Assembly: GCF_964213995.1 (NCBI RefSeq)
Contig: NC_135808.1
Coordinates: 43,338,001 to 43,402,000 of the forward strand
Origin: Mustelus asterias
Lineage: Eukaryota
Direction: 5' to 3'
Length of the DNA: 64,000 bases
Part shown: positions 1 to 60,939 of the stretch, piece after piece
Numbering within the stretch: the stretch's first letter is position 1
Layout: each line of letters starts with the position of its first letter
The notes under the pieces: model-generated
Databases searched by the model: none
Seen by the model: the letters and a program-made list of their open reading frames with translations, nothing else
Told to the model about the DNA's origin: nothing
Program-made: the position numbers and the translations under genes

Positions 1-3000
1 TCTCTCTCTCTCTGTGTCCCGCTCTCTCTCTCTCTGCCTGTGCACCGCTCTCTCTCTCGCTCTGTTTCCCCCGCTCTCTCTCTCTCTCTCTTGCCTGTGC
101 CCCGCTCTCTCTCTCTCTCTCTCTCTGTGTCCCGCTCTCTCTCTGTGTCCCGCTCTCTCTCTCTCTCTGTGTCCCGCTCTCTCTCTCTTTGTGTCCCGCT
201 CTCTCTCTCTCTGTGTCCCGCTCTCTCTCTCTCTGTGCCCCGCTCTCTCTCTCTCTCTGTGTCCCGCTCTCTCTCTCTCTGTGCCCCGCACTCTCTCTCT
301 CTGCCTGTGCCCCGCTCTCTCTCTGTGTCCCGCTCTCTCTCTCTGTGTCCCGCTCTCTCTCTCTCTGTGCCCCGCTCTCTCTCTCTCTGCCTGTGCCCCG
401 CTCTCTCTCTGTGTCCTGCTCTCTCTCTCTCTGTGTCCCGCTCTCTCTCTCTCTGTGTCCCGCTCTCTCTCTCTCTGTGTCCCGCTCTCTCTCTCTCTGT
501 GTCCCGCTCTCTCTCTCTCTGTGTCCCGCTCTCTCTCTCTCTGTGTCCCGCTCTCTCTCTCTGTGTCCCGCTCTCTCTCTCTCTGTGCCCCGCTCCCTCT
601 CTCTGTGCCCCGCTCTCTCTCTCTCTCTGTGCCCCGCTCTCTCTCTCTCTCTGTGCCCTGCTCTCTCTCTCTCTCTGTGCCCCGCTCTCTCTCTCTCTCT
701 GTGCCCCGCTCTCTCTCTCTCTCTGTGCCCCGCTCTCTCTCTCTCTCTGTGCCCCGCTCTCTCTCTCTCTCTCTGTGCCCCGCTCTCTCTCTCTCTGTGC
801 CTGTGCCCCGCTCTCTCTCTCTGTGCCCCGCTCTCTCTCTCTCTGTGTCCCGCTCTCTCACTCTCTGTGCCCTGCCTCTCTCTCTCTCTGTGCCCCGCTC
901 TCTCTCTCTCTCTGTGCCCTGCTCTCTCTCTCTCTCTGTGCCCCGCTCTCTCTCTCTCTCTGTGCCCTGCTCTCTCTCTCTCTCTCTGTGCCCCGCTCTC
1001 TCTCTCTCTCTGTGCCCCGCTCTCTCTCTCTCTCTGTGCCCCGCTCCCTCTCTCTCTCTCTGTGCCCCGCTCTCTCTCTCTCTCTGTGCCCCGCTCTCTC
1101 TCTCTCTCTCTGTGCCCCGCTCTCTCTCTCTGTGTCCCGCTCTCTCTCTCTCTGTGTCCCGCTCTCTCTCTCTCTGCCTGTGCCCCGCTCTCTCTCTCTC
1201 GCTCTGTGTCCCGCTCTCTCTCTCTCTGCCTGTGCCCCGCTCTCTCTCTCTCTCTCTCTCTGTGTCCCGCTCTCTCTCTCTCTCTGTGTCCCGCTCTCTC
1301 TCTCTCTCTGTGTCCCGCTCTCTCTCTCTCTCTGTGTCCCCGCTCTCTCTCTCTCTGTGTCCCGCTCTCTCTCTCTCTGTGTCCCGCTCTCTCTCTCTCT
1401 GTGCCCCGCTCTCTCTCTCTCTCTGTGTCCCGCTCTCTCTCTCTCTGTGCCCCGCACTCTCTCTCTCTGCCTGTGCCCCGCTCTCTCTCTGTGTCCCGCT
1501 CTCTCTCTCTGTGTCCCGCTCTCTCTCTCTCTGTGCCCCGCTCTCTCTCTCTCTGCCTGTGCCCCGCTCTCTCTCTGTGTCCCGCTCTCTCTCTCTCTGT
1601 GTCCCGCTCTCTCTCTCTCTGTGTCCCGCTCTCTCTCTCTCTGTGTCCCGCTCTCTCTCTCTCTGTGTCCCGCTCTCTCTCTCTCTCTGTGTCCCGCTCT
1701 CTCTCTCTCTGTGCCCCGCTCTCTCTCTCTGTGCCCCGCTCTCTCTCTCTCTCTGTGCCCCGCTCTCTCTCTCTCTCTGTGCCCCGCTCTCTCTCTCTCT
1801 CTGTGCCCCGCTCTCTCTCTCTGTGCCCCGCTCTCTCTCTCTCTCTGTGCCCCGCTCTCTCTCTCTCTGTGCCTGTGCCCCGCTCTCTCTCTCTCTCTGT
1901 GCCCCGCTCTCTCTCTCTCTGTGTCCCGCTCTCTCACTCTCTGTGCCCTGCTCCCTCTCTCTCTCTGTGCCCCGCTCTCTCTCTCTCTGTGCCCTGCTCT
2001 CTCTCTCTCTCTGTGCCCCACTCTCTCTCTCTCTCTGTGCCCCGCTCTCTCTCTCTCTCTGTGCCCCGCTCTCTCTCTCTCTCTGTGCCCCGCTCTCTCT
2101 CTCTCTCTGTGCCCTGCTCTCTCTCTCTCTCTGTGCCCCGCTCTCTCTCTCTCTGTACCCCGCTCTCTCTCTCTCTGTGTCCCGCTCTCTCACTCTCTGT
2201 GCCCCGCTCTCTCTCTCTCTCTCTGTGCCCCGCTCTCTCTCTCTCTCTGTGCCCCGCTCTCTCTCTCTCTGTGCCCCGCTCTCTCTCTCTCTGTGCCCCG
2301 CTCTCTCTCTCTCTCTCTGTGCCCCGCTCTCTCTCTCTCTCTCTGTGCCCCGCTCTCTCTCTCTCTCTCTGTGCCCCGCTCTCTCTCTCTCTCTCTGTGC
2401 CCCGCTCCCTCTCTCTCTCTCTGTGCCCCGCTCTCTCTCTCTCTCTCTGTGCCCCGCTCTCTCTCTCTCTGTGTCCCGCTCTCTCTCTCTCTGTGTCCCG
2501 CTCTCTCTCTCTGCCTGTCCCCCGCTCTCTCTCTCTCTCTCTCTGTGTCCCGCTCTCTCTCTCTCTGCCTGTGCCCCGCTCTCTCTCTCTCTCTGTGTCC
2601 CGCTCTCTCTCTCTCTCTGTGCCCCGCTCTCTCTCTCTCTGCCTGCGCCCCGCTCTCTCTCTGTGTCCCGCTCTCTCTCTCTGTGTCCCGCTCTCTCTCT
2701 CTCTGTGTCCCGCTCTCTCTCTCTCTGTGTCCCGCTCTCTCTCTCTCTGTGCCCCGCTCTCTCTCTCTCTGCCTGTGCCCCGCTCTCTCTCTCTCTCTGC
2801 CTGTGCCCCGCTCTCTCTGCCTGTGCCCCGCTCTCTCTGCCTGTGCCTCGCACTCTCTCTCTCTCTGTGTCCCGCTCTCTCTCTCTCTGTGCCCCGCTCT
2901 CTCTCTCTCTGTGCCCCGCTCTCTCTCTCTCTCTGCCTGTGCCCCGCTCTCTCTCTCTCTTTGCTGTGCCCCGCTCTCTCTCTCTCTCTCTGCCTGTGCC

Positions 3001-6000
3001 CCGCTCTCTCTCTCTCTGCCTGTTGCCCCGCTCTCTCTCTCTGCCTGTGCCCCGCTCTTTCTGCCTGTGCCCCGCTCTCTCTCTCTCTGCCTGTGCCCCG
3101 CTCTCTCTCTCTCTCTGCCTGTGCCCCGCTCTCTCTGCCTGTGCCCCACTCTCTCTGCCTGTGCCCCGCTGTCTCTGCCTGTGCCCCACTCTCTCTGCCT
3201 GTGCCCCGCTCTCTCTGCCTGTGTCCCGCTCTCTCTCTCTCTGCCCCGCTCTCTCTCTCTGTGTCCCGCTCTCTCTCTCTCTGTGCCCCGCTCTCTCTCT
3301 CTGTGCCCCGCTCTCTCTCTCTCTCTGTGCCCCGCTCTCTGTCTCTCTCTGTGCCCCGCTCTCTCTCTCTCTCTGTGCCCCGCTCTCTCTCTCTCTCTCT
3401 GTGCCCCGCTCTCTCTCTCTCTCTGTGCCTGTGCCCCGCTCTCTCTCTCTCTCTGTGCCCGCTCTCTCTCTCTCTCTGTGTCCCGCTCTCTCACTCTCTG
3501 TGCCCCGCTCTCTCTCTCTCTCTGTGCCCTGCTCTCTCTCTCTCTGTGCCCCGCTCTCTCTCTCTCTGTGCCCTGCTCTCTCTCTCTCTCTGTGCCCCGC
3601 TCTCTCTCTCTGTGCCCTGCTCTCTCTCTCTCTCTCTGTGCCCCGCTCTCTCTCTCTGTGCCCTGCTCTCTCTCTCTCTCTGTGCCCCGCTCTCTCTCTC
3701 TCTGTGTCCCGCTCTCTCACTCTCTGTGTCCCGCTCTCTCTCTCTCTCTGTGCCCCGCTCTCTCTCTCTCTCTGTGCCCCGCTCTCTCTCTCTCTCTGTG
3801 CCCTGCTCTCTCTCTCTCTCTCTGTGTCCCGCTCTCTCTCTCTCTCTGTGCCCCGCTCTCTCTCTCTCTCTGTGCCCCGCTCTCTCTCTCTCTGTGCCCC
3901 GCTCTCTCACTCTCTGTGCCCCGCTCTCTCTCTCTCTGTGCCCCGCTCTCTCTCTCTCTCTGTGCCCCGCTCTCTCTCTCTCTGTGCCCCGCTCTCTCTC
4001 TCTCTGTGCCCCGCTCTCTCTCTCTCTGTGCCCCGCTCTCTCTCTCTCTGTGCCCCGCTCTCTCTCTCTCTGTGCCCCGCTCTCTCTCTCTCTCTCTGTG
4101 CCCCGCTCTCTCTCTCTCTCTCTGTGCCCCGCTCTCTCTCTCTCTCTCTGTGCCCCGCTCTCTCTCTCTCTCTCTGTGCCCCGCTCTCTCTCTCTCTCTG
4201 TGCCCCGCTCTCTCTCTCTCTCTCTGTGCCCTGCTCTCTCTCTCTGTGTCCCGCTCTCTCTCTCTCTGTGTCCCGCTCTCTCTCTCTCTGCCTGTGCACC
4301 GCTCTCTCTCTCTCTCGCTCTGTTTCCCGCTCTCTCTCTCTCTGCCTGTGCCCCGCCTCTCTCTCTCTCTCTCTGTGTCCCGCTCTCTCTCTCTCTGTGT
4401 CCCGCTCTCTCTCTCTCTCTGTGTCCCGCTCTCTCTCTCTTTGTGTCCCGCTCTCTCTCTCTCTGTGTCCCGCTCTCTCTCTCTCTGTGCCCCGCTCTCT
4501 CTCTCTCTGTGTCCCGCTCTCTCTCTCTCTGTGCCCCGCACTCTCTCTCTCTGCCTGTGCCCCGCTCTCTCTCTGTGTCCCGCTCTCTCTCTCTGTGTCC
4601 CGCTCTCTCTCTCTCTGTGCCCCGCTCTCTCTCTCTCTGCCTGTGCCCCCGCTCTCTCTCTGTGTCCCGCTCTCTCTCTCTCTGTGTCCCGCTCTCTCTC
4701 TCTCTCTGTGTCCCGCTCTCTCTCTCTCTGTGTCCCGCTCTCTCTCTCTCTGTGTCCCGCTCTCTCTCTCTCTGTGTCCCGCTCTCTCTCTCTCTGTGTC
4801 CCGCTCTCTCTCTCTCTCTGTGTCCCGCTCTCTCTCTCTCTCTGTGCCCCGCTCTCTCTCTCTCTCTGTGCCCCGCTCTCTCTCTCTCTCTGTGCCCCGC
4901 TCTCTCTCTCTCTGTGCCTGTGCCCCGCTCTCTCTCTCTCTGCCCCGCTCTCTCTCTCTCTGTGTCCCGCTCTCTCACTCTCTGTGCCCCGCTCTCTCTC
5001 TCTCTGCCTGTGCCCCGCTCTCACTCTCTCTGCCTGTGCCCCGCTCTCTCTCACTCTGCCTGTGCCCCGCTCTCTCTCTCTGCCTGTGCCCCGCTCTCTC
5101 TCTCTCTCTCTGCCTGTGCCCCGCTCTCTCTCTCTCTGCCTGTGCCCCACTCTCTGTCTCTCTCTCTGTGCCCCGCTCTCACTCTCTCTGCCTGTGCCCC
5201 GCTCTCACTCTCTCTGCCTGTACCCCGCTCTCTCTCACTCTCTCTGCCTGTGCCCCGCTCTCTCTCTCTGCCTGTGCCCCGCTCTCTCTCTCTCTCTCTG
5301 TGCCCTGCTCTCTCTCTCTCTCTGTGCCCCGCTCTCACTCTCTCTGCCTGTGCCCCGCTCTCTCTCACTCTCTCTGCCTGTGCCCCGCTCTCTCTCTCTG
5401 CCTGTGCCCCGCTCTCTCTCTCTCTCTGCCTGTGCCCCGCTCTCTCTCTCTCTGCCTGTGCCCCACTCTCTGTCTCTCTCTGCCTGTGCCTCGCTCTCTC
5501 TCTCTCTCTCTGCCTGTGCCCCGCTCTCTCTCTCTGCCTGTGCCCCGCTCTCTCTCTCTCTCTCTGCCTGTGCCCCGCTCTCTCTCTCTGCCTGTGCCCC
5601 GCTCTCTCTCTCTCTCTCTGCCTGTGCCCCGCTCTCTCTCTCTGCCTGTGCCCCGCTCTCTCTCTCTCTCTCTGCCTGTGCCCCGCTCTCTCTCTCTCTC
5701 TCTGCCTGTGCCCCGCTCTCTCTGCCTGTGCCCCGCTCTCTCTCTCTCTCTCTGCATGTGCCCCGCTCTCTCTCTCTGTGTCCCGCTCTCTCTCTCTCTC
5801 TGCCTGTGCCCCGCTCTCTCTGCCTATGCCCCGCTCTCTCTCTCTCTCTGTGCCCCGCTCTCTCTCTGTGCCCCGCTCTCTCTCTCTCTCTGTGCCCCGC
5901 TCTCTCTCTCTGTGTCCCGCTCTCTCTCTCTCTCTCTGTGCCCCGCTCTCTCTCTCTCTGTGCCCCGCTCTCTCTCTCTGTGCCCCGCTCTCTCTCTCTC

Positions 6001-9000
6001 TCTGTGCCCCGCACTCTCTCTCTGCCTGTGCCCCGCTCTCTCTCTCTCTGCCTGTGCCCCGCTCTCTCTCTCTCTGCCTGTGCCCCGCTCTCTCTCTCTC
6101 TGCCTGTGCCACGCTCTCTCTCTCTCTCTGCCTGTGCCCCGCTCTCTCTGCCTGTGCCCCGCTCTCTCTGCCTGTGCCTCGCACTCTCTCTCTCTCTCTG
6201 TGTCCCGCTCTCTCTCTCTCTGTGCCCCGCTCTCTCTCTCTCTCTGTGCCCCGCTCTCTCTCTCGCTGTGCCCCGCTCTCTCTCTCTCTGTGCCCCGCTC
6301 TCTCTCTCTCTCTGCCTGTGCCCCGCTCTCTCTCTCTCTTTGCCTGTGCCCCGCTCTCTCTCTCTCTCTGCCTGTGCCCCGCTCTCTCTCTCTCTGCCTG
6401 TGCCCCGCTCTCTCTCTCTGCCTGTGCCCCGCTCTTTCTGCCTGTGCCCCGCTCTCTCTCTCTCTGCCTGTGCCCCGCTCTCTCTCTCTCTCTGCCTGTG
6501 CCCCGCTCTCTCTGCCTGTGCCCCACTCTCTCTGCCTGTGCCCCGCTGTCTCTGCCTGTGCCCCACTCTCTCTGCCTGTGCCCCGCTCTCTCTGCCTGTG
6601 TCCCGCTCTCTCTCTCTCTGCCCCGCTCTCTCTCTCTGTGTCCCGCTCTCTCTCTCTCTGTGCCCCGCTCTCTCTCTCTGTGCCCCGCTCTCTCTCTCTC
6701 TCTGTGCCCCGCTCTCTGTCTCTCTCTGTGCCCCGCTCTCTCTCTCTCTGTGCCCCGCTCTCTCTCTCTCTCTCTGTGCCCCGCTCTCTCTCTCTCTCTC
6801 TGTGCCTGTGCCCCGCTCTCTCTCTCTCTCTGTGCCCCGCTCTCTCTCTCTCTCTGTGCCCCGCTCTCTCTCTCTCTCTGTGTCCCGCTCTCTCACTCTC
6901 TGTGCCCCGCTCTTTCTCTCTCTCTGTGCCCTGCTCTCTCTCTCTCTGTGAACCGCTCTCTCTCTCTGTGCCCTGCTCTCTCTCTCTCTCTGTGCCCCGC
7001 TCTCTCTCTCTGTGCCCTGCTCTCTCTCTCTCTCTCTGTGCCCCGCTCTCTCTCTCTCTCTGTGCCCTGCTCTCTCTCTCTCTCTCTGTGCCCCGCTCTC
7101 TCCTCTCTGTGTCCCGCTCTCTCACTCTCTGTGTCCCGCTCTCTCTCTCTCTCTGTGCCCCGCTCTCTCTCTCTCTCTGTGCCCGCTCTCTCTCTCTCTC
7201 TGTGCCCTGCTCTCTCTCTCTCTCTGTGCCCCGCTCTCTCTCTCTCTCTCTGTGCCCCGCTCTCTCTCTCTCTGTGTCCCGCTCTCTCACTCTCTGTGCC
7301 CCGCTCTCTCTCTCTCTCTGTGCCCCGCTCTCTCTCTCTCTCTGTGCCCCGCTCTCTCTCTCTCTGTGCCCCGCTCTCTCTCTCTCTGTGCCCCGCTCTC
7401 TCTCTCTCTCTCTGTGCCCCGCTCTCTCTCTCTCTCTCTGTGCCCCGCTCTCTCTCTCTCTCTGTGCCCCGCTCTCTCTCTCTCTCTGTGCCCCGCTCTC
7501 TCTCTCTCTGTGCCCCGCTCTCTCTCTCTCTCTGTGCCCCGCTCTCTCTCTCTCTCTGTGCCCCGCTCTCTCTCTCTCTCTGTGCCCTGCTCTCTCTCTC
7601 TCTCTCTGTGTCCCGCTCTCTCTCTCTCTCTGTGCCCCGCTCTCTCTCTCTCTCTGTGCCCCGCTCTCTCTCTCTCTCTGTGCCCCGCTCTCTCACTCTC
7701 TGTGCCCCGCTCTCTCTCTCTCTCTGTGCCCCGCTCTCTCTCTCTCTCTGTGCCCCGCTCTCTCTCTCTCTGTGCCCCGCTCTCTCTCTCTCTGTGCCCC
7801 GCTCTCTCTCTCTCTGTGCCCCGCTCTCTCTCTCTCTGTGCCCCGCTCTCTCTCTCTCTCTCTGTGCCCCGCTCTCTCTCTCTCTCTCTGTGCCCCGCTC
7901 TCTCTCTCTCTCTCTGTGCCCCGCTCTCTCTCTCTCTCTCTGTGCCCCGCTCTCTCTCTCTCTCTGTGCCCCGCTCTCTCTCTCTCTCTCTGTGCCCCGC
8001 TCTCTCTCTCTGTGTCCCGCTCTCTCTCTCTCTGTGTCCCGCTCTCTCTCTCTCTGCCTGTGCACCGCTCTCTCTCTCGCTCTGTTTCCCGCTCTCTCTC
8101 TCTCTCTCTGCCTGTGCCCCGCTCTCTCTCTCTCTCTCTCTCTGTGTCCCGCTCTCTCTCTCTCTCTGTGTCCCGCTCTCTCTCTCTTTGTGTCCCGCTC
8201 TCTCTCTCTCTGTGTCCCGCTCTCTCTCTCTCTGTGCCCCGCTCTCTCTCTCTCTCTGTGTCCCGCTCTCTCTCTCTCTGTGCCCCGCACTCTCTCTCTC
8301 TGCCTGTGCCCCGCTCTCTCTCTGTGTCCCGCTCTCTCTCTCTGTGTCCCGCTCTCTCTCTCTCTGTGCCCCGCTCTCTCTCTCTCTGCCTGTGCCCCGC
8401 TCTCTCTCTGTGTCCTGCTCTCTCTCTCTCTGTGTCCCGCTCTCTCTCTCTCTGTGTCCCGCTCTCTCTCTCTCTGTGTCCCGCTCTCTCTCTCTCTGTG
8501 TCCCGCTCTCTCTCTCTCTGTGTCCCGCTCTCTCTCTCTCTGTGTCCCGCTCTCTCTCTCTGTGTCCCGCTCTCTCTCTCTCTGTGCCCCGCTCCCTCTC
8601 TCTGTGCCCCGCTCTCTCTCTCTCTCTGTGCCCCGCTCTCTCTCTCTCTCTGTGCCCTGCTCTCTCTCTCTCTCTGTGCCCCGCTCTCTCTCTCTCTCTG
8701 TGCCCCGCTCTCTCTCTCTCTCTGTGCCCCGCTCTCTCTCTCTCTCTGTGCCCCGCTCTCTCTCTCTCTCTCTGTGCCCCGCTCTCTCTCTCTCTGTGCC
8801 TGTGCCCCGCTCTCTCTCTCTGTGCCCCGCTCTCTCTCTCTCTGTGTCCCGCTCTCTCACTCTCTGTGCCCTGCTCTCTCTCTCTCTCTGTGCCCCGCTC
8901 TCTCTCTCTCTCTGTGCCCTGCTCTCTCTCTCTCTCTGTGCCCCGCTCTCTCTCTCTCTCTGTGCCCTGCTCTCTCTCTCTCTCTCTGTGCCCCGCTCTC

Positions 9001-11380
9001 TCTCTCTCTCTGTGCCCCGCTCTCTCTCTCTCTCTGTGCCCCGCTCCCTCTCTCTCTCTCTGTGCCCCGCTCTCTCTCTCTCTCTGTGCCCCGCTCTCTC
9101 TCTCTCTCTCTGTGCCCCGCTCTCTCTCTCTGTGTCCCGCTCTCTCTCTCTCTGTGTCCCGCTCTCTCTCTCTCTGCCTGTGCCCCGCTCTCTCTCTCTC
9201 TCGCTCTGTGTCCCGCTCTCTCTCTCTCTGCCTGTGCCCCGCTCTCTCTCTCTCTCTCTCTCTGTGTCCCGCTCTCTCTCTCTCTCTCTCTGTGTCCCGC
9301 TCTCTCTCTCTCTCTGTGTCCCGCTCTCTCTCTCTCTCTGTGTCCCGCTCTCTCTCTCTCTGTGTCCCGCTCTCTCTCTCTCTGTGTCCCGCTCTCTCTC
9401 TCTCTGTGCCCCGCTCTCTCTCTCTCTCTGTGTCCCGCTCTCTCTCTCTCTGTGCCCCGCACTCTCTCTCTCTGCCTGTGCCCCGCTCTCTCTCTGTGTC
9501 CCGCTCTCTCTCTCTGTGTCCCGCTCTCTCTCTCTCTGTGCCCCGCTCTCTCTCTCTCTGCCTGTGCCCCGCTCTCTCTCTGTGTCCCGCTCTCTCTCTC
9601 TCTGTGTCCCGCTCTCTCTCTCTCTGTGTCCCGCTCTCTCTCTCTCTGTGTCCCGCTCTCTCTCTCTCTGTGTCCCGCTCTCTCTCTCTCTGTGTCCCGC
9701 TCTCTCTCTCTCTCTGTGTCCCGCTCTCTCTCTCTCTGTGCCCCGCTCTCTCTCTCTCTGTGCCCCGCTCTCTCTCTCTCTCTGTGCCCCGCTCTCTCTC
9801 TCTCTCTGTGCCCCGCTCTCTCTCTCTGTGCCCCGCTCTCTCTCTCTCTCTGTGCCCCGCTCTCTCTCTCTCTGTGCCTGTGCCCCGCTCTCTCTCTCTC
9901 TCTGTGCCCCGCTCTCTCTCTCTCTCTCTGTGCCCCGCTCTCTCCCTCTCTGTGTCCCGCTCTCTCACTCTCTGTGTCCCGCTCTCTCTCTCTCTCTGTG
10001 CCCCGCTCTCTCTCTCTCTCTGTGCCCCGCTCTCTCTCTCTCTCTGTGCCCTGCTCTCTCTCTCTCTCTGTGCCCCGCTCTCTCTCTCTCTCTCTGTGCC
10101 CCGCTCTCTCTCTCTCTGTGTCCCGCTCTCTCACTCTCTGTGCCCCGCTCTCTCTCTCTCTCTCTGTGCCCCGCTCTCTCTCTCTCTCTGTGCCCCGCTC
10201 TCTCTCTCTCTGTGCCCCGCTCTCTCTCTCTCTGTGCCCCGCTCTCTCTCTCTCTCTCTGTGCCCCGCTCTCTCTCTCTCTCTCTGTGCCCCGCTCTCTC
10301 TCTCTCTCCTTGCCCCGCTCTCTCTCTCTCTCTGTGCCCCGCTCTCTCTCTCTCTGTGCCCCGCTCTCTCTCTCTCTCTGTGCCCCGCTCTCTCTCTCTC
10401 TCTGTGCCCCGCTCTCTCTCTCTCTCTGTGCCCTGCTCTCTCTCTCTCTCTCTGTGTCCCGCTCTCTCTCTCTCTCTGTGCCCCGCTCTCTCTCTCTCTC
10501 TGTGCCCCGCTCTCTCTCTCTCTCTGTGCCCCGCTCTCTCACTCTCTGTGCCCCGCTCTCTCTCTCTCTCTGTGCCCCGCTCTCTCTCTCTCTCTGTGCC
10601 CCGCTCTCTCTCTCTCTGTGCCCCGCTCTCTCTCTCTCTGTGCCCCGCTCTCTCTCTCTCTGTGCCCCGCTCTCTCTCTCTCTGTGCCCCGCTCTCTCTC
10701 TCTCTGTGCCCCGCTCTCTCTCTCTCTCTCTGTGCCCCGCTCTCTCTCTCTCTCTCTGTGCCCGCCTCTCTCTCTCTCTCTGTGCCCCGCTCTCTCTCTC
10801 TCTCTCTGTGCCCCGCTCTCTCTCTCTCTCTGTGCCCCGCTCTCTCTCTCTCTCTCTGTGCCCCGCTCTCTCTCTCTGTGTCCCGCTCTCTCTCTCTCTG
10901 TGTCCCGCTCTCTCTCTCTCTGCCTGTGCACCGCTCTCTCTCTCGCTCTGTTTCCCGCTCTCTCTCTCTCTCTCTGCCTGTGCCCCGCTCTCTCTCTCTC
11001 TCTCTCTCTGTGTCCCGCTCTCTCTCTCTCCTCTGTGTCCCGCTCTCTCTCTCTCTCTGTGTCCCGCTCTCTCTCTCTCTGTGTCCCGCCTCTCTTTCCC
11101 GCTCTCTCTCTCTCTGTGTCCCGCTCTCTCTCTCTCTGTGCCCCGCTCTCTCTCTCTCTCTGTGTCCCGCTCTCTCTCTCTCTGTGCCCCGCACTCTCTC
11201 TCTCTGCCTGTGCCCCGCTCTCTCTCTGTGTCCCGCTCTCTCTCTCTGTGTCCCGCTCTCTCTCTCTCTGTGCCCCGCTCTCTCTCTCTCTGCCTGTGCC
11301 CCGCTCTCTCTCTGTGTCCCGCTCTCTCTCTCTCTGTGTCCCGCTCTCTCTCTCTCTGTGTCCCGCTCTCTCTCTCTGTG
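1..11380. repeat. CT-rich compound satellite, unit (CT)n-GTG[C/T]CCCG of about 20-30 bp with GCCT-insertion variants and kb-scale higher-order blocks
   Basis: Read directly. The + strand is almost devoid of A, so it has almost no stop codons. The rare marker TGCACC recurs at 41, 4295, 8061 and 10927. Confidence 0.97.
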
Positions 11381-34998: not shown

Positions 34999-35490
34999 TC
35001 AGTGGGAGAATACTGCCCAAAGTGTACACTGTGTGTCGGGATAATTGGAACAGAATAGAAAGACCAGAGAGATTGTCGATGATGTGTGATAAGATTCTTT
35101 GTGGATTGTGTGTGTGTGGAGTAATTTGCAAACAAGATATGTAAATTCTTTATGGAAAGGAGATGTTTGGGTCAATCCCTGAGTGCACTGTGGCTTCTCA
35201 TACTCATCTCATTGTGTGAATACAGATTGTGAACAGCTGCCAGTATAAACAGCAGAGAGAATAAACTCCTCCCTGTGGATCAGTGCAGATCCACACTCTG
35301 TTTCTCTTTAATTCTCTCTCGAGTTGTAATAACCTCCCGCCTGTCAATCAGTGCAGACCACACACCCCCAGGCACCTTCCCTTCCAGCATCAAGGGGTTT
35401 GTTTCTACAGACACTGATCTTCCCCCCTTGTCCCCCCACAGAGTTAAACCTCAGCAATACCTCTTTCTGCCCCTCCCCCAGGCTCAGGGA

Positions 35491-35524
35491 TTCCTGGAAA
35501 ATGACAACAATTCCGGGAAACTCC
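35491..35524. promoter_or_regulatory. Tandem STAT GAS sites with an overlapping kB-like site
   Basis: TTCCTGGAA-N11-TTCCGGGAA; GGGAAACTCC at 35515-35524. Confidence 0.55.
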
Positions 35525-35570
35525 CGCTCAGGGCGGGAGCAGTTGGGAACCTTTACCGTCCTGAGATAAA

Positions 35571-35635
35571 CCAATGAGAATTAAGAGCCGGTGTGAATCA
35601 TCTGTTGCCGGGCAGAGTCTGAGAATTCAGGTTGC
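35571..35635 (-). promoter_or_regulatory. Canonical MHC S-X1-X2-Y module
   Basis: Minus strand reads GCAACCT-N16-CCCGGCAACAGATG (X2 TGATTCA)-N20-CTCATTGG. Confidence 0.8.
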
Positions 35636-35959
35636 TTCCAGACAGCCCAGCAGAGGAACAGCCTCTGCCGCCCCCTGTGGAGAAAGGAGGATCTGCAGTG
35701 GCAGGAGAATGGAGAGACAGGGCAGGGCTAATAGTGGGATATGGAGAGAGGGAGAACCACCCCCCCTCCCTCACTCTTATTGTAAAGAGGCTTCAGGAGC
35801 AGGAATCATTGACAGGTAGAGAGAGCGGTTAATAAAGCACACGGGACTGTGGAATTTATAGAGACACTGAGTATAAAAAAGGAGGTTATGAGAAACTTCA
35901 ACAAACACTGGTTCCGACTCAGCTGGAGTATTGTGTCCACACCTTCCAACCACAGTATC

Positions 35960-60767: not shown

Positions 60768-60809
60768 CCCAGAGACTGCTGAGTCACAGGCTCCTTGTAT
60801 TCTCATTGG
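60768..60809 (+). promoter_or_regulatory. MHC-type X1-X2-Y promoter module
   Basis: CCCAGAGACTGCTG (X2 TGAGTCA)-N20-CTCATTGG, with ATTGG 89 nt upstream of the ATG. Confidence 0.7.
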
Positions 60810-60893: not shown

Positions 60894-60939
60894 ATGAGGT
60901 TAATTCTGCTGGCGACTCTGTGGGGAGGCCTCTCTGAAG
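60894..60939 (+). CDS. Candidate exon 1 (signal peptide MRLILLATLWGGLSE-G) of an MHC or MHC-like gene; the rest lies beyond the window
   Basis: AAGATGA start context, basic-then-hydrophobic leader, phase-1 donor AAG|GTGAGC, and an XY module upstream. Confidence 0.6.

Follow-up and report, generated by a model that had tools for sequence, protein, structure and literature searches.

Intergenic S-X-Y modules among TAP, PSMB and class I genes of the shark Mustelus asterias: candidate distal enhancers with STAT and NF-kB sites

Sharks are the oldest living group having an MHC, and their class Ia region, regarded as near ancestral, has to our knowledge so far been described at gene level. In Mustelus asterias, a 64,000-nucleotide stretch of chromosome C8 (C8:43,338,001-43,402,000, here called the window) carries a complete S-X-Y module of the MHC type with no obvious gene beside it, and the question is what such a module does there and which genes it serves. 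Our analysis favours a distal RFX/NF-Y/CREB enhancer with STAT and NF-kB input that would serve TAP, PSMB and class I genes, a reading to which we give a probability of about 0.6. S-X-Y modules, and distal ones too, are already known; what differs here is the setting among TAP/PSMB/class I genes. We found no report of S-X-Y modules or distal class I enhancers in sharks or cartilaginous fishes in the literature searched, which mostly left subscription journals outside its coverage, and supplements too.

The four boxes of the module are found on the minus strand in the order and orientation of MHC S-X-Y modules. They are the S box GCAACCT (35629..35635), followed by a spacer (35613..35628) with a pyrimidine-rich 3' part, identical in 11/11 copies; the X1 box CCCGGCAACAGATG (35599..35612), a predicted RFX site; the X2 box TGATTCA (35594..35600; ATTCA is the part beyond X1), a predicted CREB/ATF/AP-1 type site; and the Y box CTCATTGG (35571..35578), an inverted CCAAT and predicted NF-Y site. 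A G-rich motif CCACAGGGGGCGGC (35667..35680), also on the minus strand and common to 10 of the 11 copies, holds a GC box and shows a weak likeness to CTCF sites. The plus strand carries an Sp/KLF-type GC box (35531..35536), a kB-like site GGGAAACTCC (35515..35524) overlapping the GAS site TTCCGGGAA (35511..35519), and another GAS site TTCCTGGAA (35491..35499), with 11 nt between the paired GAS sites. The X1 letters were compared with those that we take to be the HLA-DRA X1 box. AACCT stands 16 nt ahead of X1, as in two other distal families and in the class I promoters of this genome, and among modules X1 comes nearest to those of the class II region. Y lies 20 nt past X1, and the spacings of 16 (S-X) and 20 (X-Y) equal the 16 and 20-22 bp of the mouse modules in PMC4374748.

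How much of this might be chance? The X1 box alone is within chance expectation (0.53 matches expected; at least one match in 38 of 100 shuffles). X1 with up to two mismatches plus Y with up to one, at 18-22 nt, appeared in none of 150 Markov simulations of window positions 11701-64000, and the GAS pair in none of 100 shuffles. Scored with a matrix trained on eight other modules, six upstream of class I genes and two (putative promoters) in the class II region, the window copy reached 36.2 bits, inside the range of class I promoter modules (31.9-38.3). The repeat-free island that holds the module (35020..35830, no strand assigned) had no match in 200 kb of control DNA. Elsewhere in the window, positions 1-11377 are an 11-kb CT-rich tandem array with a unit of 22-24 bases.

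The 13 pieces returned by BLAST of the genome with the element join into 11 elements, every one of which lies at C8:41.07-43.37 Mb. With a 19-base X1X2 pattern the exact matches numbered 11, the same 11 copies, and five scattered matches had one mismatch (reversed control, 0). The many copies across chromosomes that mark a dispersed repeat were not found. A transposable-element fragment or a chance match is scarcely credible: the ends of several copies do recur, at 35570 and at about 35730, but all 13 pieces and all 11 exact matches fall inside 2.3 Mb, control DNA gave no match, and the compound motif was never reached in simulations. An earlier note, which saw the window alone, had placed S, X1, X2, Y, the GC box, the kB-like site and the two GAS sites where we find them and had called the island TE-free, in line with the control. 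The common repeat that it had allowed for is largely ruled out by 11 copies confined to 2.3 Mb of one chromosome, and the element that it described is one member of an 11-copy family, invisible from the window alone.

The common core of the copies runs from about 35730 to just beyond Y. The GC/kB/GAS flank continues in 5/11 copies and is absent from 6/11, and a second shared flank was traced in five of these six; the part below about 35390 is present, among the copies, only in that of the window, the longest in the genome. The GAS pair is intact in four of the five copies with the GC/kB/GAS flank and occurs at four places in the 1,194 kb scanned, every one in a copy of the element. From S to X2, two of 42 columns vary among the 11 copies. 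Variable columns number 9/15 in the X-Y spacer and 29/67 in the upstream flank (10 copies), in sum 38/82, against 1/23 for S plus its spacer, which lie outside the search pattern (Fisher p = 1.4e-4, for columns that are not independent). The ATTGG of Y is kept in eight copies, and Y is damaged in three. Such invariance could come partly from X-box ascertainment, gene conversion or recent duplication.

Along the chromosome the copies are oriented +++ - + - + - ++ -. Alternating orientations, together with a CTCF-like G-rich motif in nearly all copies and the precedent of XL9, might point to an architectural element, in which a CTCF-type boundary joined to an X-Y module closes loops round gene groups. 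We judge this very improbable. The motif lacks one base of a full CTCF core, and its relative score of 0.81, equalled by 3.4% of control 120-mers, is not that of a strong motif; eight orientation runs among 11 copies arise by chance about 1 time in 6, and inverted duplications would yield the alternation anyway. The region is segmentally duplicated, with blocks 85-98% identical in both orientations, and the copies would have spread along with these duplications and inversions.

The interval between 41.01 and 43.55 Mb spans 2.54 Mb, of which 1,344 kb were examined for genes by tblastn, Pfam and PDB comparison. All 140 class I matches are on C8. Class II alpha gave two matches, both on C8 (34.27 and 34.54 Mb), and the copies, at 41.07-43.37 Mb, are 6.5-9 Mb from the class II genes, a location different from that of S'-Y' enhancers; class II was rejected as the target for its distance from the copies. 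A search with the class II beta family gave no match anywhere, an outcome of little weight, and a C1-set search gave matches swamped by immunoglobulin loci. The part examined contains two TAP1, four TAP2, three PSMB8, two PSMB9 and three class I genes, with a leader-only class I copy. In order, these are TAP1 with all exons (41.108-41.132 Mb, +; exon 1 84% to catshark TAP1, P0003), TAP2 (41.148-41.204 Mb, +), PSMB8 (41.296-41.275 Mb, -), PSMB9 (41.333-41.356 Mb, +), TAP2 (41.445-41.367 Mb, -), PSMB8 with one exon frameshifted (41.515-41.502 Mb, -), class I with alpha1 frameshifted (41.60 Mb, -), a partial TAP1 (41.62 Mb), PSMB9 (41.68-41.69 Mb; start not found, and outside the distances given below), TAP2 (42.226-42.194 Mb, -), two exons of PSMB8 (42.31 Mb), class I (42.40 Mb, -; leader not found, one unconvincing pattern candidate), a two-exon TAP2 fragment (43.31 Mb), the leader-only class I promoter (43.328 Mb, +), the window element (43.374 Mb, -) and class I with an alpha2 exon of 269 nt (43.399 Mb, +). 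TAP1 and PSMB9 have no head-to-head arrangement here. The PSMB8 copies are of two divergent types. All three class I genes located show a defect, two by frameshifts and one for want of a leader, which may be real or an assembly error.

According to PMC10751288, the elasmobranch class Ia region holds TAP1/2, PSMB8/9 and class I genes in a cluster that has additional Ia-like genes close by, and the C8 region fits this account. The first parts of that paper describe genes and mention no cis-regulatory modules. Zinc-finger gene promoters, a lead from the same text, were rejected as an identity of the element: the 1,344 kb hold no real C2H2 array or zinc-finger ORF, and one match is a tandem repeat.

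The nearest gene start (an ATG, a leader or the inferred TAP1 start) is 3.9-79 kb from each of the 11 copies, distances of the S'-Y' kind. Five copies lie upstream and inverted, with respect to three TAP2 genes and two class I genes; three lie upstream in the same sense (TAP1) and three downstream. Mammalian S'-Y' enhancers are often inverted as well. By matrix, no X-Y module lies within -1000/+300 of any of the seven TAP1/TAP2/PSMB8 starts tested, and we propose that the distal modules would therefore be the sole enhanceosome input there. ISRE-type motifs are found at TAP1, TAP2 and PSMB8 starts.

Could the element instead be a true promoter that drives, on the minus strand, a long non-coding RNA or a gene whose first exon is non-coding? 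S-X-Y followed by GC, kB and GAS resembles an interferon-inducible promoter, three copies point at TAP1, splice acceptors precede the ATG exons of TAP1 and PSMB9, and the downstream part at 35020-35390 is kept in other organisms. Against this, the minus strand 3' of Y has no splice donor or TATA box within the island; two kinds of downstream flank occur among the copies, and 8/11 copies point away from the nearest gene start. TAP1 appears to have a promoter candidate of its own, with ISRE, GC and kB motifs and a donor, at C8:41085650-41085864 (L083), 3.9 kb past the nearest copy, and a TAP1 promoter role for the element was rejected on finding it. We therefore regard a promoter as unlikely. 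The TAP1 candidate is single in the DNA examined, with none before the second TAP1; the non-coding first exon inferred there would lie 22 kb upstream of the ATG exon. No leader exon is recognisable by sequence 3' of the module on the minus strand, as had been reported before, and the lack of a donor and a TATA box agrees with this; the promoter with a non-coding first exon that had been offered as an alternative finds no support in the letters.

The favoured reading, a distal enhancer, gains further company from a matrix scan of 1,194 kb, which gave 29 matches (200 kb control, 0): 11 of this family, five and four of two further intergenic families, five class I promoter modules (three of them training sites), and four of 22.6 bits that proved to be minisatellite artefacts and were left out of the module count. 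One more member of the third family brings the distal modules to 21, ten of them in the two further families. AACCT precedes X by 16 nt in all three families wherever TE insertions spare the site. A general X-Y pattern, devised after the modules had been viewed, gave 35 matches genome-wide, 31 in the C8 MHC and four on contig C523 (control, 0). Intergenic modules outnumber proximal ones in the C8 class Ia region. The second family (C8:41245386+, 41258117-, 41479311-, 41485955- and 42259419-) has several kB sites after the module and stands 3' of PSMB8 and 5' of TAP2. The third comprises C8:41305505-, 41313491+, 41518342+, 41565116- and 42325359+; each of the three PSMB8 genes has one inverted copy of this family 3-18 kb upstream, and the AT-rich stretch past Y in the family could be a TATA box. 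On the unplaced contig C523 (position 145375, L230) there are four identical S-X-Y modules, and about 6 kb downstream of one of them an ORF with a ubiquitin-like domain is possibly a FAT10/UBD-like gene.

A broader proposal is that the class I antigen-processing cluster in sharks is run by at least 21 intergenic S-X-Y enhancers of three families, this one with direct STAT and NF-kB input, and that TAP/PSMB8 promoters carry interferon-factor sites only. We offer it tentatively and would put it at somewhat worse than even odds. If true, long-range enhanceosome control would be ancestral to the class Ia region and retained by mammals solely at class II, and the modules would increase in number and become inverted together with the genes.

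For the window copy itself, the most likely target is a class I promoter at a distance of 25 kb; the gene behind this promoter looks frameshifted in the assembly. The copy lies 25.3 kb upstream of this promoter and inverted. The proximal X-Y module of the gene (60768..60809, +), the candidate target promoter, is followed by the leader exon (60894..60939, +), and the alpha1-alpha3 exons lie past the window end; the alpha2 exon is 269 nt long where the other two class I genes have 273, and is thus frameshifted. The earlier note had proposed a check of synteny with the MHC, and the element does lie on C8 among TAP1, TAP2, PSMB8, PSMB9 and class I genes. Its idea of a distal shark MHC enhancer is supported in part. 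That the element is a distal MHC module agrees with its place on the MHC chromosome, inverted and 25 kb upstream of a class I promoter (at 60.8 kb), with constraint among copies and with presence in other organisms; the context proves to be class Ia/TAP/PSMB and not class II.

The neighbours of this copy look decayed, being a two-exon TAP2, a class I copy with only a leader and a class I gene with a frameshift, and the nearest complete TAP2 starts 1.15 Mb off. Because they look broken, the window copy may be a passenger: a relic of regulation, carried in a block that was duplicated and is decaying, which does little or nothing today even if the copies near intact TAP1/TAP2/PSMB genes work. All three gene remnants within 75 kb look broken in this way, the region is full of 85-98% identical segmental duplicates, and PMC2292219 describes XL-7/XL-8 as remnants of HLA-DRB pseudogene promoters. 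The copy is, however, the longest of all with every motif intact, contigs of four other organisms cover its island almost from end to end, and beyond the boxes it has no likeness to class I, TAP or PSMB8 promoters and lacks a leader or donor. We consider a relic doubtful, although a serious competitor of the distal enhancer.

Parts of the element were found in 20 of the 21 sequencing runs listed (11 studies), and the comparison was made with six runs, organisms B-G, organism A being set aside. Results showed that the core is present in contigs of all six organisms. Five of them have several divergent contigs on it, which indicates that the family exists there; these pile up on the core and stop at one common point past Y. 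Contigs cover 26-29 of the 29 island bins in four of the six runs, nearly end to end. In the 7, 12, 1 and 9 contigs aligned to the core, 18 differences are listed, mostly in single contigs and several of them in X1/X2 and the S-X spacer, with near-end differences unlisted and Y outside the count. With changes in these boxes, cross-species constraint is not demonstrated.

How might such an enhancer act? The X1, X2 and Y boxes would assemble RFX, CREB/ATF and NF-Y, as in mammals, and this complex would bring in NLRC5 or CIITA. The paired GAS sites would be occupied by STAT dimers that interferon activates, and the kB site by NF-kB, so that interferon and inflammatory signals would reach the element directly; a loop would join the complex to promoters 4-30 kb off. 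The human TAP1/LMP2 bidirectional promoter has kB, GC and ISRE/GAS elements. The palette of inputs is the same in the shark (SXY, kB, GC box, interferon elements), but there an ISRE/kB promoter candidate carries one part of it and distal S-X-Y/GAS modules the other.

In mammals, RFX, CREB and NF-Y occupy X1, X2 and Y and attract CIITA or NLRC5; the distal copies of the class II region are bound by RFX and CIITA and have enhancer activity (PMC7866136, PMC2677874, PMC2292219 and PMC2278383). The S'-Y' enhancers and XL elements of the human and mouse class II region, such as that at -2.3 kb of HLA-DRA (PMC2677874, PMC7866136, PMC2292219), resemble the shark element in the full S-X-X2-Y with canonical spacing, the distance from gene starts, the several copies across the MHC and the frequent upstream position. 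They differ in that the shark element is surrounded by TAP, PSMB8/9 and class I genes, megabases from class II, has a flank of paired GAS, kB and GC sites, and belongs to a recent-looking paralogous family. For mouse, PMC4374748 describes a promoter-bound NLRC5 peak shared by Tap1/Psmb9 and reports that the MHC yielded no intergenic NLRC5 site. The NLRC5-bound SXY modules of class I, B2m and Tap1/Psmb9 promoters described there share the spacing and the association with antigen-processing genes; the mouse modules are promoter-proximal, whereas those of the shark are intergenic and the tested TAP1/TAP2/PSMB8 starts are without one.

The distal S-X-Y set supplies concrete sequences for asking how CIITA/NLRC5-type control arose. 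It bears on whether TAP2 and PSMB8 once had enhanceosome control, and on whether the mouse split between promoter-bound NLRC5 and enhancer-using CIITA is derived.

A hidden gene near the copies was rejected after the longest 300 of 645 low-copy ORFs (at least 85 aa) and 65 more had been scanned, which gave mainly TE, TAP, PSMB and class I matches; the others were only side items such as GPCR, beta-defensin-like, ubiquitin-like and retrovirus-like matches. They include two ORFs of rhodopsin-family GPCRs, one at 43.45 Mb and one at 43.54 Mb (L028:6053-7126, - and L245:9318-9998, -; weak best PDB match galanin receptor 2), a beta-defensin-like exon close to the class Ia region at C8:43.523 Mb (L244:1289-1582, -; Pfam E=7e-5), retrovirus-like gag-pol ORFs between TAP2 and one element copy (L115:3499-8642, +) and an env-like ORF at 43.49 Mb (L040:6714-7535, -). 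The class I gene at 42.40 Mb (L077:8-699, L076) looks chimeric, with an alpha1 start like the 43.405-Mb gene and the rest 90-98% like the 41.59-Mb gene. Tandem X-Y modules about 103 bp apart occur in class I promoters (L033:9605-9975, C8:43327605; C8:41601637), and a similar X-Y doubling is found in class Ib promoters near 23-24 Mb.
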